Assembly: GCA_040755235.1 (NCBI GenBank)
Contig: JBFMBJ010000001.1
Span: forward strand, 1-48,055
Length of the DNA stretch: 48,055 nt
Source: Candidatus Omnitrophota bacterium
GTDB lineage: Bacteria > Omnitrophota > Gorgyraeia > Gygaellales > JBFMBJ01
Direction of reading: 5' to 3'
The notes below the pieces were generated by a model that worked only from the letters and a program-made list of their open reading frames with translations, was not told the origin of the DNA and searched no databases. This document shows, one piece after another, positions 12,996 through 47,864 of the stretch. Position numbers and translations under genes: made by a program. Within the stretch, counting starts at the first letter, position 1. Every line of letters starts with the position of its first letter.

Positions 12996-13385
12996 ATGGA
13001 ATTGGCGGGAGATATAAGAGATTTTGATGATTTGGAAGTATATCAGCTGGCTTTAGAATTGGCAGATTGGATATATGATTTAACAAGCAATTTTCCTAGT
13101 GAAGAAAGGTTCAATGTTACCTCGCAGATAAGGGATGCTGCAACTTCAATTGGCGCAAATATAGCCGAAGGCTATGGTCGGTTTCACTATAAAGAAAACA
13201 TTCAATTTTGTAGACAAGCAAGAGGCTCTTTATCTGAGACAAAGCACTTTATGATTTTTAGCAATAAACGCAAGTATATTTCTGATGATATTTACAAAGA
13301 ATTTTTACAAAAATACAAGCAATTACAAATAAAAATTAACAATTATATTAATTCAATTGGTAAGAAGAATAGTGACGATGTATGA
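12996..13385 (+). CDS. Four-helix-bundle protein (23S rRNA IVS protein / Avd-like family)
   Basis: DFDDLEVYQLALEL..., RDAATSIGANIAEGYGRFHYKENIQFCRQARGSLSETKH. SD aaaggag lies 5 nt upstream. Confidence 0.85.
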   Translation: MELAGDIRDFDDLEVYQLALELADWIYDLTSNFPSEERFNVTSQIRDAATSIGANIAEGYGRFHYKENIQFCRQARGSLSETKHFMIFSNKRKYISDDIYKEFLQKYKQLQIKINNYINSIGKKNSDDV

Positions 13386-13417
13386 CAACATTTGACAATG
13401 GTATGACAATATATGAC
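13381..13417. repeat. TATGAC array (right flank of 4HB cassette 2; inverse of the GTCATA array)
   Basis: TATGAC at 13381, 13402 and 13412, plus TTTGAC at 13391 (10-11 nt phasing). The 4HB stop TGA 13383-13385 lies in the first unit. Confidence 0.85.
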
Positions 13418-14548
13418 GATTCACGTGCTTCGGCGCGAAAAATTAACATCCTGCACGTGATTTGGTCCTTAGAAAAAGGCGGCGCGGAAAGATTCTTGGT
13501 TTTGCTGGTTAAAAATTTTGACCAAAGCCGTTTCAATTCCATTGTTTGTTGCCTTAATTGGAAAGGCGAATGGGCAAGCGAACTTGAGGAAAAAGGAATC
13601 AAGGTTATTGCCTTAAATAAAAAAGGTAAGTTCGACATCTGTGTAATCTATAGAATAATCTGTGTAATCAGACAATATAAAATTGATATTGTAAATACTC
13701 ATCTTTGGGCAGCAGATTGCTTAGGAAGGGTTGCGGCTATTTTTGGGGGAGTGCCCATAATTATAAGCACAGTCCAAAATGTAGATATCTGGAAGAAGTT
13801 TTGGCATAAAATCATAGATAAGATGTTGGCGAACCGAACAACCAAATTTATTGCAGTTTCAAAAGCAGTTAAGGAGTTTTTGATTAATACAGAAAAGATT
13901 CCTGAAGAAAAAATTGAGATAATACCGAATGCGATTGATGCAGAAAGTTTGCGAGTTAACGAGTTGGCGGGTTTGCGAGTTAGAGAAGATTTAGGGATTA
14001 AAAACGAAGAGATAGTGCTGACTGTAATTGGAAGATTGGTTGAACAAAAGGGCCATAAATATTTGTTTGAAGCCTTGAGTATGCTGGATGGCAGGTATAG
14101 AGTGAAATTACTGGTGGTTGGTGATGGGCCGCTTAGAGAAAGTTTACAGTTTAAAGTTAACAGTTTACAGTTAGAGAATAAAATTCAATTCTTAGGGCAG
14201 AGAAGAGACATGGCAGAAATATTTAATGCGAGTGATGGTGTGATTTTGCCTTCGCTTTATGAGGGGTTGCCTGTAAGCATTTTAGAGGCGATGGCTGTTG
14301 GTAAGCCTGTAATCGCAACAGATGTTGGCGGCACTTGCGAACTTGTTAAAGATGGAGAAACTGGATTTTTGGCACAAGCAAAAAACAGCAAAAGCTTAGC
14401 ATCTAATATAGAAAAACTTTTAACTTCACCAGATAAAGGAAAAAAAATGGGAGAGAGAGGCAAGGAATTGGTTAATAATGCCTTTTCTATACAGGCTATA
14501 GTTAAAAAAACAGCAGATTTATATCTCTCACTTCTCGGTAACGGTTAG
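13382..14548 (+). CDS. Family 4 glycosyltransferase
   Basis: INILHVIWSLEKGGAE..., YEGLPVSILEAMAVGKPVIATDVGGTCELVKDGETGFL. The first ~15 codons (MTTFDNGMTIYDD) are a translation of the TATGAC array, so the true start is probably downstream (ATG 13403 or later). Confidence 0.8.
   Translation: MTTFDNGMTIYDDSRASARKINILHVIWSLEKGGAERFLVLLVKNFDQSRFNSIVCCLNWKGEWASELEEKGIKVIALNKKGKFDICVIYRIICVIRQYKIDIVNTHLWAADCLGRVAAIFGGVPIIISTVQNVDIWKKFWHKIIDKMLANRTTKFIAVSKAVKEFLINTEKIPEEKIEIIPNAIDAESLRVNELAGLRVREDLGIKNEEIVLTVIGRLVEQKGHKYLFEALSMLDGRYRVKLLVVGDGPLRESLQFKVNSLQLENKIQFLGQRRDMAEIFNASDGVILPSLYEGLPVSILEAMAVGKPVIATDVGGTCELVKDGETGFLAQAKNSKSLASNIEKLLTSPDKGKKMGERGKELVNNAFSIQAIVKKTADLYLSLLGNG
13637..13669. repeat. 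In-frame ATCTGTGTAATC direct repeat, 21-nt period
   Basis: Perfect 12-mers at 13637-13648 and 13658-13669 encode ICVIYRIICVI. Confidence 0.85.
13945..13982. repeat. In-frame octamer array (NNCGAGTT-type), copy b
   Basis: agtttgcgagttaacgagttggcgggtttgcgagttag encodes SLRVNELAGLRVR. It is 35/38 identical to 10993-11030. Confidence 0.85.
14141..14172. repeat. In-frame AGTTTACAGTT direct repeat, 21-nt period
   Basis: Units at 14141-14151 and 14162-14172 encode SLQFKVNSLQL. They share the TTACAG core with 11433-11475. Confidence 0.8.
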
Positions 14549-14581
14549 GGTAACGAAGCCAGTATCGGTAAGGGTAATGGC
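14535..14581. repeat. Flank A of 4HB cassette 3 (GGTAACG/GGTAAGG-type low-complexity array)
   Basis: tcggtaacggttagggtaacgaagccagtatcggtaagggtaatggc. It contains the GT stop TAG 14546-14548 and stops in all + frames. An inverted copy lies at 18716-18763. Confidence 0.85.
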
Positions 14582-14588
14582 AAAGTAA

Positions 14589-14984
14589 ATGGAAAATAAA
14601 AAACGAATAACAAGTTTTAAAGATTTAGAAGTATACCAGAATAGCTACAGAGCTATGCTAAGTGTAATGAAAGAGATTGTTCCGAAATTACCCGAGAGAG
14701 AAAAATACGACTTGGTAGATCAATTGAGTAGAGCCTGTAAGTCAATACCCAGATTGATAGCAGAAGGTTATGCTAAGCGGCACCAAAAGGCAGGTTTCCA
14801 GAAATATATTGATGATGCGATGAGCGAGTCTAATGAAATGGTTGTTAGTTTAAGCGAGTCGCGAGATATATACTTTAATTATATAGATGTGAAACAGTGC
14901 GATGAATTAATTGATATTTATGATAAGACAGGCAGGCAGCTTTATAAATTAGCTGAAAGTTGGACAAATTTTAAAAGACGATAG
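14589..14984 (+). CDS. Four-helix-bundle protein (23S rRNA IVS protein / Avd-like family)
   Basis: SFKDLEVYQNSYRA..., LSRACKSIPRLIAEGYAKRHQKAGFQKYIDDAMSESNE. Confidence 0.85.
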   Translation: MENKKRITSFKDLEVYQNSYRAMLSVMKEIVPKLPEREKYDLVDQLSRACKSIPRLIAEGYAKRHQKAGFQKYIDDAMSESNEMVVSLSESRDIYFNYIDVKQCDELIDIYDKTGRQLYKLAESWTNFKRR

Positions 14985-15040
14985 ACGTAACCCAAGGACG
15001 AAACGGGCATCCTAACCTTAACCTAAAAACGTTGCCATAA
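14983..15040. repeat. Flank B of 4HB cassette 3
   Basis: agacgtaacccaaggacgaaacgggcatcctaaccttaacctaaaaacgttgccataa. Its reverse complement matches 18579-18636 at 54/58 positions. Confidence 0.9.
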
Positions 15041-15057
15041 CGTATAGTGGTATTCAC

Positions 15058-16293
15058 ATGAAAAGGACAATACTCGCTTTATTTATTCTCTATCTACCGT
15101 TTCAATTACGGCTGCCTCAGATTCCGATAATTAATACTTTGAATTTCTTTCTTATTCTATTATTTTTGATTTTACTTTTTGACAGAAAACCTAATTCTGC
15201 TGCCTTGAGTATTGATATTCCGCTTTTATTATTTTTATTTATATGGATTGCTTCATTTGCACATACATTAGCTTATCCACCGGGAATATGGAAATATCCA
15301 GTTGCTGTTGACTTTAAAAGATTAATTTCACTTCCTTTGGCATATTTTGTATCCAGCCGTTGCATAAAAACAAAAAAAGAATTGAATTTTGTTTTTTTTA
15401 TGATACTTTTAAGTCTGGGCTTGGTTGCGCTACATACTTGGAAAAGCGGTATGTTAGCAGGTCCTCATTATGCTGATTTTAAGAGGTCATCGGGTCCTTT
15501 TGGCGAAGGTTTTAAAGGAGCTGATATTGCCGGTGGTTTTTTGGCAATATTTACGCCTTTTTTGCTTTCATATTCGATTTTTACTAAAAAAAGAATAGAA
15601 AAAATAGCTGGTTTTTTGGGATTAGGTATTTGTATTATGGCACTTTTTGCTACTTATTCCCGCGGTTCCATTGCAGCTTTACTTATTGCTGTGCTTATAA
15701 TGATTTTATCTTCATTAAAACATTTTTTTAAAACTTCTAAGATTTCAACAATGATAATATTGATAACTTTTATTGGACTTGGATTAACGTGGGAACGTTG
15801 GGTTCCTCAGTCTATTATTCATAGGATAGAGGGAACAACAGCGCAGGAAGAGTCTTATGGCGGGGAATTACCCCTTGATGAAAGTTCGCAAGGTAGGATT
15901 AAGAAATGGGAAGTGGGCATAGAAGTATTTCGGATGAATCCTATATTTGGTGTTGGATTTAAAATACCAGAATTTGTTCTTAAGTCAGATACTCACAATT
16001 CTTTTATCCAGATTGCAGCGGAAATGGGCATTTTTGGTTTTCTTGTATTTCTTTTATTTCTTCTAAGCATATTTATAAAGACAAAATCATTATTAAAGAC
16101 CGAATATGTTTGGTTGGGAGTTGGTTTTATTGGCTGTCTGATTGCTTTTATAATTGTGAATATGTTTTATAGTAATTTTTTTAGAGATACTGTGGTAGGA
16201 ACCTTTTGGGTCTTATTGGGGTTGTTGGTGAGTGCGAAGAAGTTAAGTGAGGCAAATGAAGACATAAGTTATGGAGCTCATAGAGCGACATAA
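15058..16293 (+). CDS. O-antigen ligase / polymerase-like membrane protein (Wzy_C family)
   Basis: Polytopic hydrophobic protein with YSRGSIAALLIAVLIM and DTHNSFIQIAAEMGIFGF, typical of the O-antigen ligase domain. Confidence 0.75.
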   Translation: MKRTILALFILYLPFQLRLPQIPIINTLNFFLILLFLILLFDRKPNSAALSIDIPLLLFLFIWIASFAHTLAYPPGIWKYPVAVDFKRLISLPLAYFVSSRCIKTKKELNFVFFMILLSLGLVALHTWKSGMLAGPHYADFKRSSGPFGEGFKGADIAGGFLAIFTPFLLSYSIFTKKRIEKIAGFLGLGICIMALFATYSRGSIAALLIAVLIMILSSLKHFFKTSKISTMIILITFIGLGLTWERWVPQSIIHRIEGTTAQEESYGGELPLDESSQGRIKKWEVGIEVFRMNPIFGVGFKIPEFVLKSDTHNSFIQIAAEMGIFGFLVFLLFLLSIFIKTKSLLKTEYVWLGVGFIGCLIAFIIVNMFYSNFFRDTVVGTFWVLLGLLVSAKKLSEANEDISYGAHRAT

Positions 16294-16311
16294 CTTATTT
16301 GTCTGAATTTG

Positions 16312-16326
16312 TCCCGCCCTTTTGGC
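16312..16326. repeat. Left arm of a perfect 15-bp inverted repeat around the GIY-YIG gene
   Basis: tcccgcccttttggc is the exact reverse complement of 16601-16615. Confidence 0.95.
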
Positions 16327-16337
16327 TGGAGGTAGGT

Positions 16338-16595
16338 ATGCATTATATTTATTTGTTAAAAAGCGAGAAAGACAACTATATTTATATTGGCAATACCAAT
16401 GATTTAGAAAGAAGATTGGTTGAGCATAATAGCGCTAACAATACAGCTACTAAGAAGCATAGACCTTTTAAATTAGTTTATTACGAAGCTTATTTAGATA
16501 AGAGGGATGCTTTAGATAGAGAAAATAAATTAAAACATCACGGAAGCGTTATTGGACATCTGAAGAAACGATTAAAATATAGTTTATCTTGTTAA
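16338..16595 (+). CDS. Small stand-alone GIY-YIG (URI-domain) nuclease family protein
   Basis: HYIYLLKSEKDNYIYIGNTNDLERRLVEHNS. SD ggagg at 16328-16332. The ORF-track start (TTG 16299) only adds a translation of the left IR arm. Confidence 0.85.
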   Translation: MHYIYLLKSEKDNYIYIGNTNDLERRLVEHNSANNTATKKHRPFKLVYYEAYLDKRDALDRENKLKHHGSVIGHLKKRLKYSLSC

Positions 16596-16600
16596 ATTTC

Positions 16601-16615
16601 GCCAAAAGGGCGGGA
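16601..16615. repeat. Right arm of the perfect 15-bp inverted repeat around the GIY-YIG gene
   Basis: gccaaaagggcggga, 5 nt after the TAA stop. Confidence 0.95.
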
Positions 16616-16628
16616 TTAATTCGTAGAC

Positions 16629-16685
16629 GCTCCGACATAGCGTCGGAGCTACAATTTACGAAAGCAATAGCGAATCGTAAATTGT
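16629..16685 (+). other. Two adjacent perfect hairpins (8-bp stem with 5-nt loop; 11-bp stem with 13-nt loop)
   Basis: gctccgac-atagc-gtcggagc (16629-16649) and acaatttacga-N13-tcgtaaattgt (16651-16685). There is no U-tract, so they are not classical terminators. Confidence 0.6.
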
Positions 16686-16707
16686 CTACTCATTAAGGGG
16701 GTGTCAA

Positions 16708-18543
16708 ATGAACAAAATAAAAGTTTTTAGTGGTTGCTTGTTTGTTTTATTGTTAAGTGTTTTTATTGGTACGGTAAATGCACAGGATACTGCAGTAAGG
16801 ACTGCGCCGGCTAATGTGCAGGAGAGAACTGCAGTCAGGACTCCTACAGCCACTTCACAAACCAGCACTGCTGTCAGGACCTCTCCGGTCACTCCGCAAG
16901 CATATACTGCTGAGAGGGATATTCCGATTAGTTCGCAAATTGAAAGCAGTATTAGAACTTTCTACGTAGATGGATTATCTGGGAGTGATACTACAGGCAA
17001 CGGTTCATCTTCTAAACCTTGGAAAACTATTAAATTTGCTGTAAACAAACTTGCGCCAGGTGATGTGCTTTCTATTATGGGAGGTATATACAAAGAGCGC
17101 ATAACTATTACAAAAAGTGGGAGCGATACGGGTCGGATTACTATTGGTGCTTTCGGCAATGGAGAAGTTATTATTGATTGCTCTCCGAAGATCGGAGAAT
17201 GGACGCCATACACCGAAACTACAATCAAAGGAATTTATAAAGCAACCTGTTCCTTTAAGCCCACTGCTGTAGTTGTGAACGAACAGCCAATTTTTCCTGC
17301 CTTTTCTCTCACTGATATTAAAGAAAATGAATGGTATTACAATGCCACTTTAAAGATTATTTATCTTTATCCCAAAGCAGGGATTATACCTACGAATTCC
17401 AATGTCGGCGTGATTTCTGATGACCAGTATAGCGACGGGATACTTATTAATAATGCTCATTACATCACTCTTTATGGCCTGACAGTTCGATATGCAGGAG
17501 GAAGAGGAATATCTATTTTAGGAAATTACACTGAAATCAGGAGATGTAATGTGAAATTTAACGGCCATACCGGTATAAACATTTTTGCTTACGGAACTAC
17601 AAGATCTACTGACACTATTGTAGCAGACAATAATATCTATCACAATTTTTTAAGGAACTGGCCGCGCGGACGTTATAAATGGGGCGGTTGGGGAGGCGGC
17701 GCAATTAGTCACGGAACGCCTAAAACACAATATATTAATAATGTTTCACATAAAAATGGTGGAGAGGGACTGCTTGCCTATCGCGGAAGCGCTGGTGGGA
17801 CTGTTTGGAAAAATAACATTGTCTATGATAACTGGAGCGTTAATATTTACATAGATAATCAACCAAATGGCCTAATCGATGGAAATATAATTTTTAGCAG
17901 CGAGCCGGACACACACGATTTGTACCATAATGGTGATACAAATCCAGGAGATAATAGTAATTTAAAACGACTAAGGCCCCAGGGAATTATGACCGCCGAT
18001 GAAAAATACGGCGTAACTCCAACCGCAACTTTAAATAATGTGCGCATTATCAATAATACTATTGTTAATTGCCGAAAGGGTATTGACCACTATGCAAGCG
18101 CGCCTGGGTCTGGTTTGAAAAATGTTTATGTAGGTAATAACACTATAGTCGTTCCCAACGCTACCTCAATTGGAGAACCTTTTAGTGGGTTAAAAGTACC
18201 TTACAATAGTGGTAATAACCTGAACGTGGTTTTTGAGAATAATCGCATATACGCCACCAATGCAAGCGCATATCTGCTATATCTGGGAACTGATCCGAAA
18301 GTTACAACAGTATCTGCCATGACTCTTAAGGATTTAACTTTTAAGGGCAACACTTGGTATCACGCAACGCGGCCAAAGGCTTTTCACGTTGGTCCGACTT
18401 ACCATACAACTTATGATTTTGATTTTAATGGTTGGCACAATATTTGTAAAACTAACTGCATAGCCGATGTGTATAAAAATATCGCTACGCTGATTCAGCC
18501 GATATTAGACAGGATAGCATCAATTAAAGCAACTTATAAATAG
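16708..18543 (+). CDS. Secreted right-handed parallel beta-helix protein (pectate-lyase fold; polysaccharide lyase/hydrolase-like)
   Basis: Signal peptide LLLSVFIGTVNA, TAVRT-type low-complexity repeats, then beta-helix turns (RCNVKFNGHTGINIF, DNNIYHN, NNIVYDNWSVNIYIDN, NNTIVNC). Confidence 0.7.
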   Translation: MNKIKVFSGCLFVLLLSVFIGTVNAQDTAVRTAPANVQERTAVRTPTATSQTSTAVRTSPVTPQAYTAERDIPISSQIESSIRTFYVDGLSGSDTTGNGSSSKPWKTIKFAVNKLAPGDVLSIMGGIYKERITITKSGSDTGRITIGAFGNGEVIIDCSPKIGEWTPYTETTIKGIYKATCSFKPTAVVVNEQPIFPAFSLTDIKENEWYYNATLKIIYLYPKAGIIPTNSNVGVISDDQYSDGILINNAHYITLYGLTVRYAGGRGISILGNYTEIRRCNVKFNGHTGINIFAYGTTRSTDTIVADNNIYHNFLRNWPRGRYKWGGWGGGAISHGTPKTQYINNVSHKNGGEGLLAYRGSAGGTVWKNNIVYDNWSVNIYIDNQPNGLIDGNIIFSSEPDTHDLYHNGDTNPGDNSNLKRLRPQGIMTADEKYGVTPTATLNNVRIINNTIVNCRKGIDHYASAPGSGLKNVYVGNNTIVVPNATSIGEPFSGLKVPYNSGNNLNVVFENNRIYATNASAYLLYLGTDPKVTTVSAMTLKDLTFKGNTWYHATRPKAFHVGPTYHTTYDFDFNGWHNICKTNCIADVYKNIATLIQPILDRIASIKATYK

Positions 18544-19761: not shown

Positions 19762-20022
19762 ATGACAATTACAATGACAGCAAAGAATCAAATAACCATA
19801 CCTAAGAAGATCACAAATGCTTTGGGCTTAGGGAAGGGGTCTATGTTCGAGGTAGAGGTCTCTAGAGATGGGATAGAGCTTATTCCTCTGGAGACAAAAG
19901 AAAGGCAGTTCACAGATGAGGAATACGTGAAATTAGAGACCCTTGCAGCCAAAGAAAAGGGGAAAGAAAAACATGTAACAAAAAGGTTCATCGATAATTT
20001 AAAAAAGGGAAAATCTAATTAA
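19762..20022 (+). CDS. AbrB/MazE/SpoVT-family antitoxin
   Basis: MTAKNQITIPKKITNALGLGKGSMFEVEV (swapped-hairpin motif). It overlaps the downstream gene by 1 nt (TAATG). Confidence 0.75.
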   Translation: MTITMTAKNQITIPKKITNALGLGKGSMFEVEVSRDGIELIPLETKERQFTDEEYVKLETLAAKEKGKEKHVTKRFIDNLKKGKSN

Positions 20023-20330
20023 TGTCTTTACGCCTTTATTACAGGCCTTCTTTTAAAAGAAGCATCAAGCGTTTAGGATATGAACAGAAGAAAACAGTAG
20101 GACTGATAATTGAATCTTTAGCTGTTTATTATTCTCGTGAGTGTAATCTGCTAGAGGCACAAAAGATAGCACCACGATTTTTTTATAAACAACTAAGAAA
20201 GCCCTATTATGAAGCCGGTATCGAAGGAACCATCCGAGTGATTATAAGACGAGAGGGTGAAAATTGTATTGTAGTATTAGCCGGGAATCATGACCAAATA
20301 AAACAATTTCTGGCCAGCGTACAGTGTTGA
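20022..20330 (+). CDS. Putative type II toxin (RelE/ParE-like small basic protein)
   Basis: Size, position after the AbrB antitoxin and translational coupling support the call. YRPSFKRSIKRLGYEQKKTVGLIIESL resembles RelE/ParE N-termini. The family assignment is tentative. Confidence 0.5.
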   Translation: MSLRLYYRPSFKRSIKRLGYEQKKTVGLIIESLAVYYSRECNLLEAQKIAPRFFYKQLRKPYYEAGIEGTIRVIIRREGENCIVVLAGNHDQIKQFLASVQC

Positions 20331-23569: not shown

Positions 23570-23630
23570 CATATCGTGTATAGCGTATTGAGTATTGCGC
23601 AATACGCACGACGCACAACGCAATACGAAA
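23570..23630. repeat. Cargo-less palindromic element of the CGTATTG / CAATACG family
   Basis: The left half is cgtattgagtattgcg and the right half is cgcaatacgcacgacgcacaacgcaatacg. The central perfect 14-bp palindrome gtattgcgcaatac lies at 23592-23605. Confidence 0.85.
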
Positions 23631-40935: not shown

Positions 40936-40983
40936 CAACAAGGCTAGGTAAAATAATAATTATTATAAATCCTAGCCTTGTTG
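40936..40983 (-). terminator. 13-bp perfect hairpin between the anti-sigma gene and the ABC genes (terminator or attenuator candidate)
   Basis: caacaaggctagg-N22-cctagccttgttg. The T-run on the minus strand is weak. Confidence 0.4.
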
Positions 40984-47094: not shown

Positions 47095-47864
47095 CTTTTA
47101 TAGAGCCTATATGCCTCATTTACAGAAACCCCTTCATGTACAATTGCCTTGACTGCTTTAATCATTCCTATCGGATTATCTGATTGGAAGATATTTCTTC
47201 CCATATCTACTCCACTAGCACCTGCTTTAATTGCATTTGCTGCCATTTCCAATGCAGCCTTTTCTTCTATCTTTTTACCGCCGGCAATAACTACCGGAAT
47301 CTTTCCGCAAGCCTCAACTACCTCTTGAAAGTTGTCGCAATAATAAGTTTTAACCATATGGCAGCCTATTTCTACGCATATTCTACAGGCCAAAGCGAGA
47401 TAACGCGCGTCTCTAACCATTTCTTTTCCAACAGCTGTCACCGCTAAAACGGGTATACCATACCTTTCGCCTTCATTGACAATTTTGCTTAAATTCTCAA
47501 TCGTCTGCTTTTCAAATTCTCCACCGATATATACAGAGCAGGTTATACTGGATGCATTTATCCTGATTGCATCTTCTATTGAGGTAGTAATTATTTCATT
47601 GGAGAGTTCTTTTAAAATACTTTGTCCGCCCGAAACCCTTAATATTACTGGTATATTGAGTTCTGGATTAATCCAGTTTCTCAGAGCCCCTCGGGTTATC
47701 ATTAAGGCATCTGCATAAGGCAGAAGCGGTTTAACAGTTTCACCCAGATTTCTTAATCCGCTTGTCGGGCCCTGAAAATAACCATGGTCTACGGCAAGCA
47801 TTACACAGCGGCCGGTTTTAGGATTAACTATTCTCGATAATCTATTTTTCATTCCCCAATCCAT
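47091..47864 (-). CDS. Class I aldolase of the DhnA/FbaB/LsrF (DeoC/LacD) family
   Basis: LAVDHGYFQGP, ADALMITRG, Schiff-base Lys context HMVKTYY, and GRNIFQ. Confidence 0.8.
   Translation of the reverse strand: MDWGMKNRLSRIVNPKTGRCVMLAVDHGYFQGPTSGLRNLGETVKPLLPYADALMITRGALRNWINPELNIPVILRVSGGQSILKELSNEIITTSIEDAIRINASSITCSVYIGGEFEKQTIENLSKIVNEGERYGIPVLAVTAVGKEMVRDARYLALACRICVEIGCHMVKTYYCDNFQEVVEACGKIPVVIAGGKKIEEKAALEMAANAIKAGASGVDMGRNIFQSDNPIGMIKAVKAIVHEGVSVNEAYRLYKR

Follow-up and report, generated by a model that had tools for sequence, protein, structure and literature searches.

Ssn proteins (cd10448) are single-domain GIY-YIG proteins of ~94 amino acids (aa), which bind hairpin repeats in single-stranded DNA (ssDNA) only and cut beside them (PMC11893778). 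Their repeat is CGTCATTCCCGCGMAVGCGGGAATCYRG, copies of which typically lie on both sides of an ssn gene (Chenal et al. 2025, Nat Commun, PMC11893778). These authors likened the NTS-ssnA-NTS arrangement to an insertion sequence, and a host-level role, the control of incoming ssDNA, has been demonstrated for SsnA/NTS in Neisseria (PMC11893778). The intervening sequences (IVS) of 23S rRNA in Coxiella burnetii and Leptospira carry an open reading frame (ORF) for a four-helix-bundle protein (S23p/23S_rRNA_IVP) and are excised by RNase III (PMC4990558). GIY-YIG ORFs were also found in rRNA insertions of the Candidate Phyla Radiation (CPR) that match no intron of group I or II (Tsurumaki et al. 2024, J Bacteriol, PMC11270868). 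These insertions occupy scattered, non-conserved sites and were judged to lie 'outside the context of homing'; Brown et al. 2015 are cited in the same paper for such CPR insertions (PMC11270868). Here, we describe a small GIY-YIG nuclease gene enclosed by an inverted repeat (IR) between two exopolysaccharide (EPS) genes of a Candidatus Omnitrophota metagenome-assembled genome (MAG). The window analysed is a complete contig of 48,055 bp with 35.6% G+C. We regard the feature, with a probability of roughly 60%, as one copy of a widespread and mostly unrecognised family of hairpin-bounded selfish cassettes.

The Cassette and Its Nuclease

The cassette consists of the following elements, which include a Shine–Dalgarno (SD) sequence:

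16312..16326, + strand: left arm of the cassette IR, TCCCGCCCTTTTGGC; family consensus CCC[C/A]GC[C/A]C..., covarying
16330..16334, + strand: SD sequence GGAGG of the GIY-YIG ORF, in the loop, 3 nt past the stem; position kept in close relatives
16338..16595, + strand: GIY-YIG nuclease ORF (Pfam PF01541), 85 aa, single domain, with the family-specific C-terminus KLKHHGSVIGHLKKRLKYSL
16601..16615, + strand: right arm of the cassette IR, GCCAAAAGGGCGGGA, exact reverse complement of the left arm

The sequence-only reading of this DNA had proposed a perfect 15-bp IR at 16312-16326/16601-16615 that holds the SD and the GIY-YIG ORF alone. Both statements proved correct. The arms are exact reverse complements, and the 274-nt loop between them contains tGGAGGtaggt, the ORF, and 5 nt, with nothing else. 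Allowing two mismatches (a 2-nt internal loop), the pairing reaches 22 nt (16305-16326/16601-16622). This is the sole perfect IR of at least 15 nt with arms up to 800 nt apart anywhere in the window. The arm TCCCGCCCTTTTGGC had no further occurrence in the window at up to three mismatches, which rules out a common repetitive extragenic palindromic (REP) element in the contig. Rfam gave no match in the window at the gathering threshold and none in 16200-16750 at E values up to 5; the arms and the flanking modules described below match no known Rfam RNA family. Folding had been suggested along with the sequence-only reading. The minimum free energy (MFE) prediction for 16245-16712 contained the long-range stem and both flanking hairpins (-143.6 kcal/mol, z = -8.1).

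The ORF matched PF01541 with 67.5 bits (cut-off 22.6, E = 1.3e-18), the only other domain match being a weak overlapping one to T5orf172 (PF10544). The closest solved structures were those of the UPF0213 proteins 1zg2 and 1ywl, and Slx1, and NCBIfam contained no specific family for the protein. Its 153 close homologues share an unusually conserved C-terminus, KLKHHGSVIGHLKKRLKNSL. Residues Y5, Y16, G18, R26, H30, E50, and E62 were invariant in 39 sequences; by analogy with I-TevI and UvrC, the conserved Tyr, Tyr, Arg, His, and Glu would have catalytic roles. The dN/dS ratio was 0.076 between the window ORF and its orthologous copy in another EPS locus (L083), and 0.03-0.12 in other same-site orthologues, values that indicate a functional ORF under strong purifying selection. 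No cassette relatives were found among the viral contigs of IMG/VR, which speaks against a phage origin. The plasmid relatives were all distant (<42% identity) UPF0213- or Ssn-like proteins, and these supplied the comparators flanked by the SRM motif of the Ssn system that are used below.

Conservation and Covariation of the Inverted Repeat

To place the cassette in its family, we used 80 fetched loci (labelled with L and a number), one genome per species, 76 of which had enough flank for an IR test. They came from Omnitrophota, Patescibacteria/CPR, Planctomycetota-labelled MAGs, Elusimicrobia, Balneolaceae, Moraxella caviae, and Porticoccus. Many loci were cut at contig ends. A perfect IR of at least 10 bp brackets the ORF in 70/76 loci, with a median of 16 bp as compared to a mean of 6.4 and a maximum of 11 in shuffled controls. 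The flanking IR is thus a character of this GIY-YIG gene family. Copies lacking an IR had been named as a finding that would speak against the sequence-only reading; the homologous copies do carry it.

When the arms were aligned from their outer ends, 93% of the cells paired, a percentage inflated by building the alignment on the pairing diagonal; the double-sided changes, seen at 18 of 20 pairs, are unaffected by this. The covariation score was 0.72, versus 0.18 in shuffles and at most 0.19 with the partner slid. The outer pairs C-C-C-[C/A]-G-C were almost invariant, and pairs 3, 4, 6, and 7 nearly so. Together with the covarying inner pairs, this indicates a sequence-constrained stem base and a structure-constrained shaft.

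Mismatches in the stem were unevenly distributed on the sense strand: G·T/T·G occurred 47 times and A·C/C·A 8 times. Some are common to related loci, which lowers this count and leaves its direction unchanged. A duplex or two-strand constraint would give equal numbers of G·T and A·C mismatches. In 36 loci the cassette lies in or abuts an RNA gene (16S rRNA 15, 23S rRNA 10, RNase P RNA 11), and in 36/36 of these, at ~14 independent sites, the RNA gene is on the ORF strand; the Rfam scan behind these numbers covered the loci apart from L064, L066, L069, L070, and L079. The mismatch excess, the uniform sense orientation, the fold z-score, and the covariation argue that the stem is selected in the transcript. 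The IR covaries and is selected on the sense strand, and the cassette is always sense-oriented in its host transcription unit. The earlier proposal that a transcript stem loops out the nuclease gene is backed by these same observations.

Terminal Hairpin Modules of the Omnitrophota Unit

The IR of the window copy is flanked by two further palindromic modules:

16254..16310, + strand: left terminal module, AAAT-GA-AGAC, inner hairpin, GTCT-GA-ATTT (from the sequence and the MFE fold)
16264-16298, + strand: inner hairpin of the left module, ATAAGTTATG/loop GAGCTCATAGAGCGA/CATAACTTAT
16616..16696, + strand: right terminal module, TTAAT-TC-GTAG ... CTAC-TC-ATTAA, with two nested hairpins; closing stem covarying
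16629-16649, + strand: nested hairpin GCTCCGAC/GTCGGAGC, absent from the orthologous copy in L083
16651-16685, + strand: nested hairpin ACAATTTACG/CGTAAATTGT
16695-16701, + strand: SD-like AAGGGGG abutting the module end; the ATG of the downstream beta-helix gene is at 16708-16710

The upstream Wzy-like ORF ends inside the left module, which supplies its final 13 codons and its stop codon (16291-16293). About 15 Omnitrophota-type loci show the architecture of this module with compensatory changes. About 20 loci share the order upstream stop, left module, arm, SD, ORF, arm, right module, AGGAG, and downstream ATG, and the outer ends of the modules coincide with the stop codon of the upstream gene and the SD of the downstream gene. 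The consensus of the left module is AA[A/G]T-GA-NNNN, an inner hairpin ACTTAYGGAGC...CRTAAGT, and NNNN-GA-A[C/T]TT; that of the right module is TYAAT-TC-NNNN, at least one inner hairpin, and NNNN-TC-ATTRA. In type, the left module is the reverse complement of the right module. The closing stems of both covary (TTAAT/ATTAA, TCAAT/ATTGA, TAAAT/ATTTA; GCAG/CTGC, GCGC/GCGC, GACC/GGTC, GGCC/GGCC), and the 2x2 internal loops are kept, as GA/GA in the left module and TC/TC in the right one. A compensatory change also separates the module hairpins of orthologous copies (ATAAGTTAT/ATAACTTAT versus ATAACTTAT/ATAAGTTAT).

The sequence-only reading had pointed to similar segments after both GIY-YIG copies of the window. 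They are real, as the window has exactly two occurrences of TTAATTCGYAGACG and two of CTCATTAARGGRG, one after each copy, but they belong to two inverted copies of a hairpin module that this reading had missed. Its suggestion that the element carries the ribosome-binding region of the next gene gained support, short of proof, from a similarity that reaches TCATTAA(A)GGGG and from AGGAG directly adjoining CTCATTRA in 12/20 loci.

Small hairpins are nested in the right modules of the window (16629-16649) and of other loci (L017, L064; L012:2150-2200; L088, L103). They are either of the GCTCCGAC/GTCGGAGC type or gene-less mini-hairpins with the arms of the cassette itself, and palindromes inserted into palindromes appear to be the rule. 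The segment AAGTGAGGC at 16245-16253, directly before the left module, matches the alternative module 5' end that other loci have (AAGT-GA-GGCC) and could be what is left of an earlier end.

The Second Copy and Matched Protein–Arm Variants

A second copy lies at the contig end:

47958..48055, - strand: second GIY-YIG paralogue, C-terminal 31 codons and stop (...RERKLKHYGQARAHLKNRLKRSLEL*), cut by the contig end
47944..47957, - strand: right IR arm of the second copy, AATTAGTGCTGGGT, a CCCAGCAC variant; partner arm beyond the contig end
47943-47877, - strand: right module, TTAAT-TC-GCAG ... CTGC-TC-ATTAA
47876-47870, - strand: SD AGGAGGG; ATG of the next gene at 47864

The truncated paralogue had been noticed before, and the fragment is genuine. 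It belongs to a sister lineage of the intact copy. Exact look-ups returned no identical protein for the GIY-YIG ORF or for the neighbour of the second copy. A metagenome scan for the lineage of the fragment returned full-length relatives of 77-79 aa. In about 24 of the 27 GIY-YIG loci of this lineage, the gene lies between ACCCAGCACTAATTTT ... AAAATTAGTGCTGGGT and has the same modules, which answers the earlier question of an equivalent IR for the second copy. The fragment in the window is followed by AAAATTAGTGCTGGGT and then by a standard right module. Since its relatives carry matching arms, the left arm of this copy almost certainly lies just past the contig end.

The protein segment after KLKH[H/Y]G varies together with arm positions 7-12 across the lineages:

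SVIGHLKKRL: arm variant CCCGCCCTTTT
KGxAELKKR: arm variant CCGCACCTT
QGIRRLKERL: arm variant CCGCACATAA
QARxHLKNRL: arm variant CCAGCACTAATT

Such co-variation of C-terminus and arm is what specific recognition would produce, and it is confounded by shared descent.

Mobility and Turnover

Close relatives of the window nuclease (84-86% aa identity) were found in L083, in L084, L085, and L086, and in L087. L083 is an orthologous EPS locus with the order GT4 glycosyltransferase (GT), Wzy, cassette, and beta-helix gene. Here the nuclease is 84% identical to the window protein, as compared to 62% for Wzy and 65% for GT. The copies in L084, L085, and L086 adjoin ExbB/ExbD, and that in L087 follows a hemerythrin gene. 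In the five-way alignment, similarity across contexts starts exactly at AAATGA and stops at TCATTAA(A)GGGG. These sharp limits define a transposed unit of ~445 nt, including the SD-like run, which occurs in at least three unrelated gene contexts.

Losses were also detected. L085 has another cassette, a diverged one, which lies between the genes for ExbD and rubrerythrin. At the same site, L084 has no more than the first 26 nt of the left module, followed directly by ATG; from their sequences, we read the two loci as a presence/deletion-remnant pair. The remnant (L084:1660-1700, compared with L085:1600-2060) puts the loop sequence GGAGCG 7 nt upstream of the ATG, where it could serve as the SD of the downstream gene. 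Gene-less versions include L026:2985-3240, which keeps both modules, and many hairpins of 40-130 nt that have the cassette arms and lie in rRNA or RNase P RNA. One MAG, JBDRHJ01, alone contributed L009, L034, L060, L064 (two copies), and L069.

Insertion Sites

The cassettes occupy at least five distinct sites in small-subunit and at least six in large-subunit rRNA, two in RNase P RNA, tRNA flanks, and many operon spacers. For the most part, the family resides in rRNA and RNase P RNA genes; the sequence-only reading had missed this habitat, as well as the relation to Ssn nucleases and IVS elements. From the flanks and standard knowledge, we take one RNase P RNA site to be the helix directly 5' of GAGGAAAGUCCGG (P3), and the other to lie just 5' of ACAGAAUUCGGCUUA. 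The 16S rRNA copies presumably sit, on the same grounds, at several variable-helix tips. The Moraxella and Porticoccus copies lie at about position 540 of 23S rRNA, which, by comparison with the E. coli 23S rRNA, is probably helix 25. Helix 25 is among the known 23S IVS sites (PMC4990558).

No common sequence was found among the insertion sites of the loci compared. Target-site duplications were not systematic in these loci; the median flanking direct repeat of 6 nt was no better than in shuffles. Insertions were found at the apex of host palindromes, either at the helix tips of RNA genes or nested centrally in other modules (L012, L088). These positions suggest ssDNA hairpin loops as the target. 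Selection alone could give this pattern.

Some copies sit in unusual contexts. In two CPR genomes (L037:139-864, L057:3001-3672), the GIY-YIG ORF lacks a stop; its reading frame crosses the right IR arm, translated as KNGAG, and runs on into a type IV pilin-like protein (G|FTLIELLVV). An upstream duplicate of the pilin leader, MKKLCPKSLGFT, is retained in L037. In principle, prepilin peptidase could release both parts of the fusion, and the insertion would be neutralised at the protein level. A complete tRNA gene lies inside an IR with the family arms CCCCGCACCAAAA...TTTTGGTGCGGGG at L014:3321-3440. Several cassettes directly adjoin the 5' end of a tRNA, whose first 8-9 nt are present a second time upstream (L014, L020, L023, L036 flanks). 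L059:2930-3290 lacks an IR and has a direct repeat of 23 bp, which takes in the 5' end of the tRNA. The flanks of seven CPR copies (L004-L006, L027, L048, L073, L077) bear the RNase P RNA signature GAGGAAAGUCCGG or ACAGAAUUCGGCUUA. Among these loci, those that were scanned stayed below the threshold of the Rfam RNase P models; standard annotation probably misses RNase P RNA genes that carry such inserts.

Four-Helix-Bundle Cassettes and Other Features of the Window

Three ORFs of the 23S_rRNA_IVP family (four-helix bundle, PF05635) were identified by Pfam between the EPS genes:

577-942: first four-helix-bundle ORF
12996-13385: second four-helix-bundle ORF
14589-14984: third four-helix-bundle ORF

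The sequence-only reading had drawn a parallel between the nuclease cassette and the four-helix-bundle cassettes, and it holds for all three PF05635 ORFs of the window, which are likewise bracketed by IRs. Their arms consist of short tandem units of the GTAGAGA/GTAGCAA, GTCATAC, and GGTAACG types; similar heptamer repeats precede the ORF in the IVS of Coxiella. In the first ORF, an in-frame TAG at 619-621 takes the place of the W in the family motif LEVWQKA, and this ORF is for that reason probably a pseudogene. The first ~25 codons of the annotated GT4 glycosyltransferase (MTTFDNGMTIYDD..., 13382-13456) derive from the right IR arm of the second cassette. The L083 orthologue starts at the position aligned to GT4 residue 26, so the true GT4 start is probably downstream. 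Between GT and Wzy, L083 (1600-1703, compared with window 14549-15057) has no four-helix-bundle cassette but a gene-less palindromic spacer of CGCAATAC-type units. The four-helix-bundle cassettes thus show a presence/absence polymorphism. Units like CGCAATAC also make up a palindrome at window 23572-23625.

At 19762-20330, a MazE/AbrB-type antitoxin ORF (PF04014) overlaps by 1 nt with the next ORF, which codes for 102 aa and has no Pfam match; the two are likely a toxin–antitoxin pair inside the EPS region. A hairpin of 24+24 nt without spacer (CAACAAGGCTAGGTAAAATAATAA/TTATTATAAATCCTAGCCTTGTTG, 83% complementary) lies at 40936-40983 between two minus-strand genes.

A Model for the Cassette and Its Rivals

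With the above results in hand, we propose the following mechanism. The core cassette is a promoter-less small GIY-YIG gene that brings its own SD and lies in the loop of an IR of 15-25 bp, whose outer pairs CCC[C/A]GC/GC[G/T]GGG are conserved in sequence. A host promoter would transcribe it. In the transcript, the IR is predicted to fold as a helix of about two turns and to extrude the ORF from the host RNA, so that host RNA folding or operon expression would survive, as in the 23S IVS. By analogy, RNase III would probably cut the stem, and the nuclease would be translated from the loop via its own SD. The nuclease may recognise its own IR hairpin in ssDNA, as the related Ssn proteins bind CCCGC-stem hairpins, and this recognition may promote spread or retention of the cassette without target-site duplication. 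In Omnitrophota, the modules would supply an upstream stop codon and a downstream SD, so that insertion into an operon would be non-polar. It is possible, at somewhat less than even odds, that these elements form a distinct class of mobile element, for which we suggest the term 'hairpin cassette': an Ssn-like nuclease gene inside its own recognition hairpin, which doubles as an RNA stem that keeps the insertion phenotypically silent, as in an IVS and without a ribozyme, with modules that make operon insertion non-polar. If so, a hairpin cassette could invade rRNA, RNase P RNA, tRNA flanks, a pilin leader, and operon spacers across several phyla.

The main rival explanation is an immobile, domesticated Ssn-like host nuclease, with the IR and the modules as its own regulatory or target sites. 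In its variants, the gene would regulate itself or control incoming ssDNA like SsnA/NTS, and the stem would only stabilise or process the mRNA. Such a role would agree with the strong purifying selection (dN/dS 0.03-0.12), with same-site retention in Balneolaceae RNase P RNA and in two diverged EPS loci, with a nuclease better conserved than its neighbours, and with the demonstrated host-level role of SsnA (PMC11893778). We consider it unlikely, as ~14 unrelated sites with essential rRNA helices among them, near-identical units with sharp boundaries in unrelated contexts, deletion and gene-less derivatives, and several diverged lineages within one contig or genome all speak against it. A purely DNA-level transposon, in which the IR and modules are terminal inverted repeats, the nuclease serves as the transposase, and transcript pairing is incidental, would explain the conserved outer IR sequence, the modules as inverted copies of each other, and the multiple copies in varied contexts. 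This option appears improbable to us: target-site duplications were not found, GIY-YIG is not a known transposase chemistry, and neither the sense-strand G·T excess (47:8) nor the 36/36 sense orientation within RNA genes would be expected. The free covariation of the inner IR also fits a constraint on structure better than a sequence read by a protein.

A classical homing endonuclease would have entered an existing hairpin or intron and would spread by cutting empty alleles of one target. GIY-YIG is a classical homing-endonuclease fold, and the gene-less hairpins with the same arms can be read as empty sites. We give this explanation only a slim chance, because Rfam detected no intron of group I or II at the cassette or near it, the protein consists of a catalytic domain without any DNA-binding domain, and the insertion sites share no sequence, as Tsurumaki et al. 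likewise concluded for the CPR rRNA copies (PMC11270868). The least probable explanation, with a practically negligible chance, is that the palindrome arose at random or that it is an ordinary terminator or attenuator in the spacer of two EPS genes. Since 13/100 shuffles of the window yielded some perfect 15-mer IR within 800 nt, the length of the IR alone is weak evidence. The expected number of matches for the G+C-rich arm TCCCGCCCTTTTGGC, however, is ~1e-7, and the question of chance was settled by the IR at 70/76 homologues in other phyla and by its covariation. A terminator or attenuator is ruled out by the missing T-run after the stem and by the 274-nt loop. We also rejected an integron attC cassette, as the IR encloses the ORF instead of following it and there is no GTTRRRY core.

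Several points weigh against the selfish-cassette reading itself. To our knowledge, GIY-YIG enzymes hydrolyse DNA, and strand transfer is not known for them. The vertical retention at the same site (Balneolaceae RNase P RNA; the window/L083 EPS locus) with dN/dS <0.1 would also be shown by a domesticated gene. The 36 sense insertions represent only ~14 independent sites, which gives p ~1e-4 and not 2^-36, and the G·T excess would be expected for a strand-specific ssDNA hairpin, too. The relation to Ssn has its own weak points. The SRM motif HGTCWY N0-2 YYVSBRH with its conserved 5' GTC is not kept in the cassettes: in the window, GTCTGAATTTG stands before TCCCGCCC, 8 nt too far for an SRM, most loci have no GTC at all, and the 5' flank of the left arm is host-specific. 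The C-terminal third of the protein, KLKHHGSVIGHLKKRL, differs from KKWNRDWKIRLIE of the SRM-flanked Ssn-like proteins. The cassette nuclease appears related to Ssn and may belong to the cd10448 clade.

The selfish-cassette reading has practical consequences. The precise boundaries and the cultured carriers (Balneola sp. EhC07 with an RNase P RNA insert, and Moraxella caviae CCUG 355 and Porticoccus sp. W117 with 23S rRNA inserts) make it directly testable. It explains recurrent annotation artefacts, such as ORFs running into the arms, contig breaks, and poor Rfam RNase P RNA matches at insert-bearing loci. The matched nuclease/hairpin lineages would, moreover, add to the sequence-specific ssDNA nucleases available as tools.

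Comparison with Known Systems

Our search of the open literature, which was incomplete, returned no description of the IR, the RNase P RNA copies, the Omnitrophota modules, or a link between Ssn and the CPR insertions. Ssn proteins resemble the cassette in several respects. They are single-domain GIY-YIG proteins of about 85-95 aa (the window protein has 85), their stem core is (T)CCC(C/A)G.../...C(G/T)GGG(A) (compare NTS ATTCCCGCG..CGCGGGAAT and the Azospirillum hairpin ATCCCCGCGAAGGCGGGGAT), and protein and repeat variants occur in matched pairs. Pairs of GTCATCCCCGCGAAGGCGGGGATCC flank the Azospirillum homologue, which is located between sufB and sufC, and ATCCCAGGG...CCCTGGGAT flanks the Rhizobium homologue. 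Their stem cores match two arm variants of the cassette, CCCCGC and CCCAG, and the window protein is 32-38% identical to these SRM-flanked proteins over residues 3-66, the catalytic core. In contrast, the cassette gene lies inside one split hairpin, whereas an Ssn gene lies between complete small hairpins; in related loci, complete small CCCGC/GCGGG-type hairpins are found as gene-less derivatives only. The cassette hosts are Omnitrophota, CPR, Balneolaceae, and others, and the 48-kb window contig shows no dispersed repeat cloud. The cassettes are sense-oriented in rRNA, RNase P RNA, and operons and show signs of pairing at the RNA level, none of which is mentioned in PMC11893778.

Small nuclease genes between inverted hairpin-forming repeats, gene-less hairpin derivatives, and the lack of target-site duplications are shared with RAYT/REPtron and IS200/IS605 elements. 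These elements act on ssDNA hairpins, which for the cassette is proposed only, and they use an HUH/Y1 transposase with a covalent intermediate, whereas the cassette has a hydrolytic GIY-YIG enzyme. We know of no need for sense transcription and no residence in structured RNA genes for them. Among the features of classical insertion sequences, terminal inverted repeats are present in the cassette (the IR and the inverted modules); its only ORF is the GIY-YIG gene, which belongs to no recognised transposase family. I-TevI and the Seg proteins share the GIY-YIG catalytic domain and the selfish lifestyle, but the cassette has no DNA-binding domain, intron, or conserved target site, and the intron matches in related loci lie elsewhere in those rRNA genes, not around the cassette ORF.

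The 23S IVS, like the cassette, have a terminal IR, with a 20-28-bp stem that replaces a helix tip and an ORF in the loop, no ribozyme, and a sporadic distribution (PMC4990558). The 22-bp stem of the window with its 2-nt internal loop would be compatible with the excision by RNase III, without religation, that marks an IVS. The cargo of the cassette is a nuclease, not a four-helix-bundle protein, and its IR has a conserved sequence core. The window copy lies in an mRNA spacer between two protein-coding genes, not in rRNA, and the Omnitrophota form adds terminal modules. The CPR rRNA insertions with GIY-YIG ORFs are probably the same elements as the cassette family. A flanking IR was not reported for them (the term 'inverted repeat' is nowhere in the text of PMC11270868), nor were copies in RNase P RNA, tRNA flanks, or operons, non-CPR hosts, or a relation to Ssn (PMC11270868). 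The family joins the Ssn nuclease/hairpin-repeat pairs (2025) with the unexplained GIY-YIG insertions in CPR rRNA (2024), which were previously unlinked, and ties both to the 30-year-old puzzle of the origin of rRNA intervening sequences. This comparison suggests one mechanism for Ssn, the CPR insertions, and the IVS, in which the nuclease would read a hairpin in its DNA form and the cell would read it in its RNA form.

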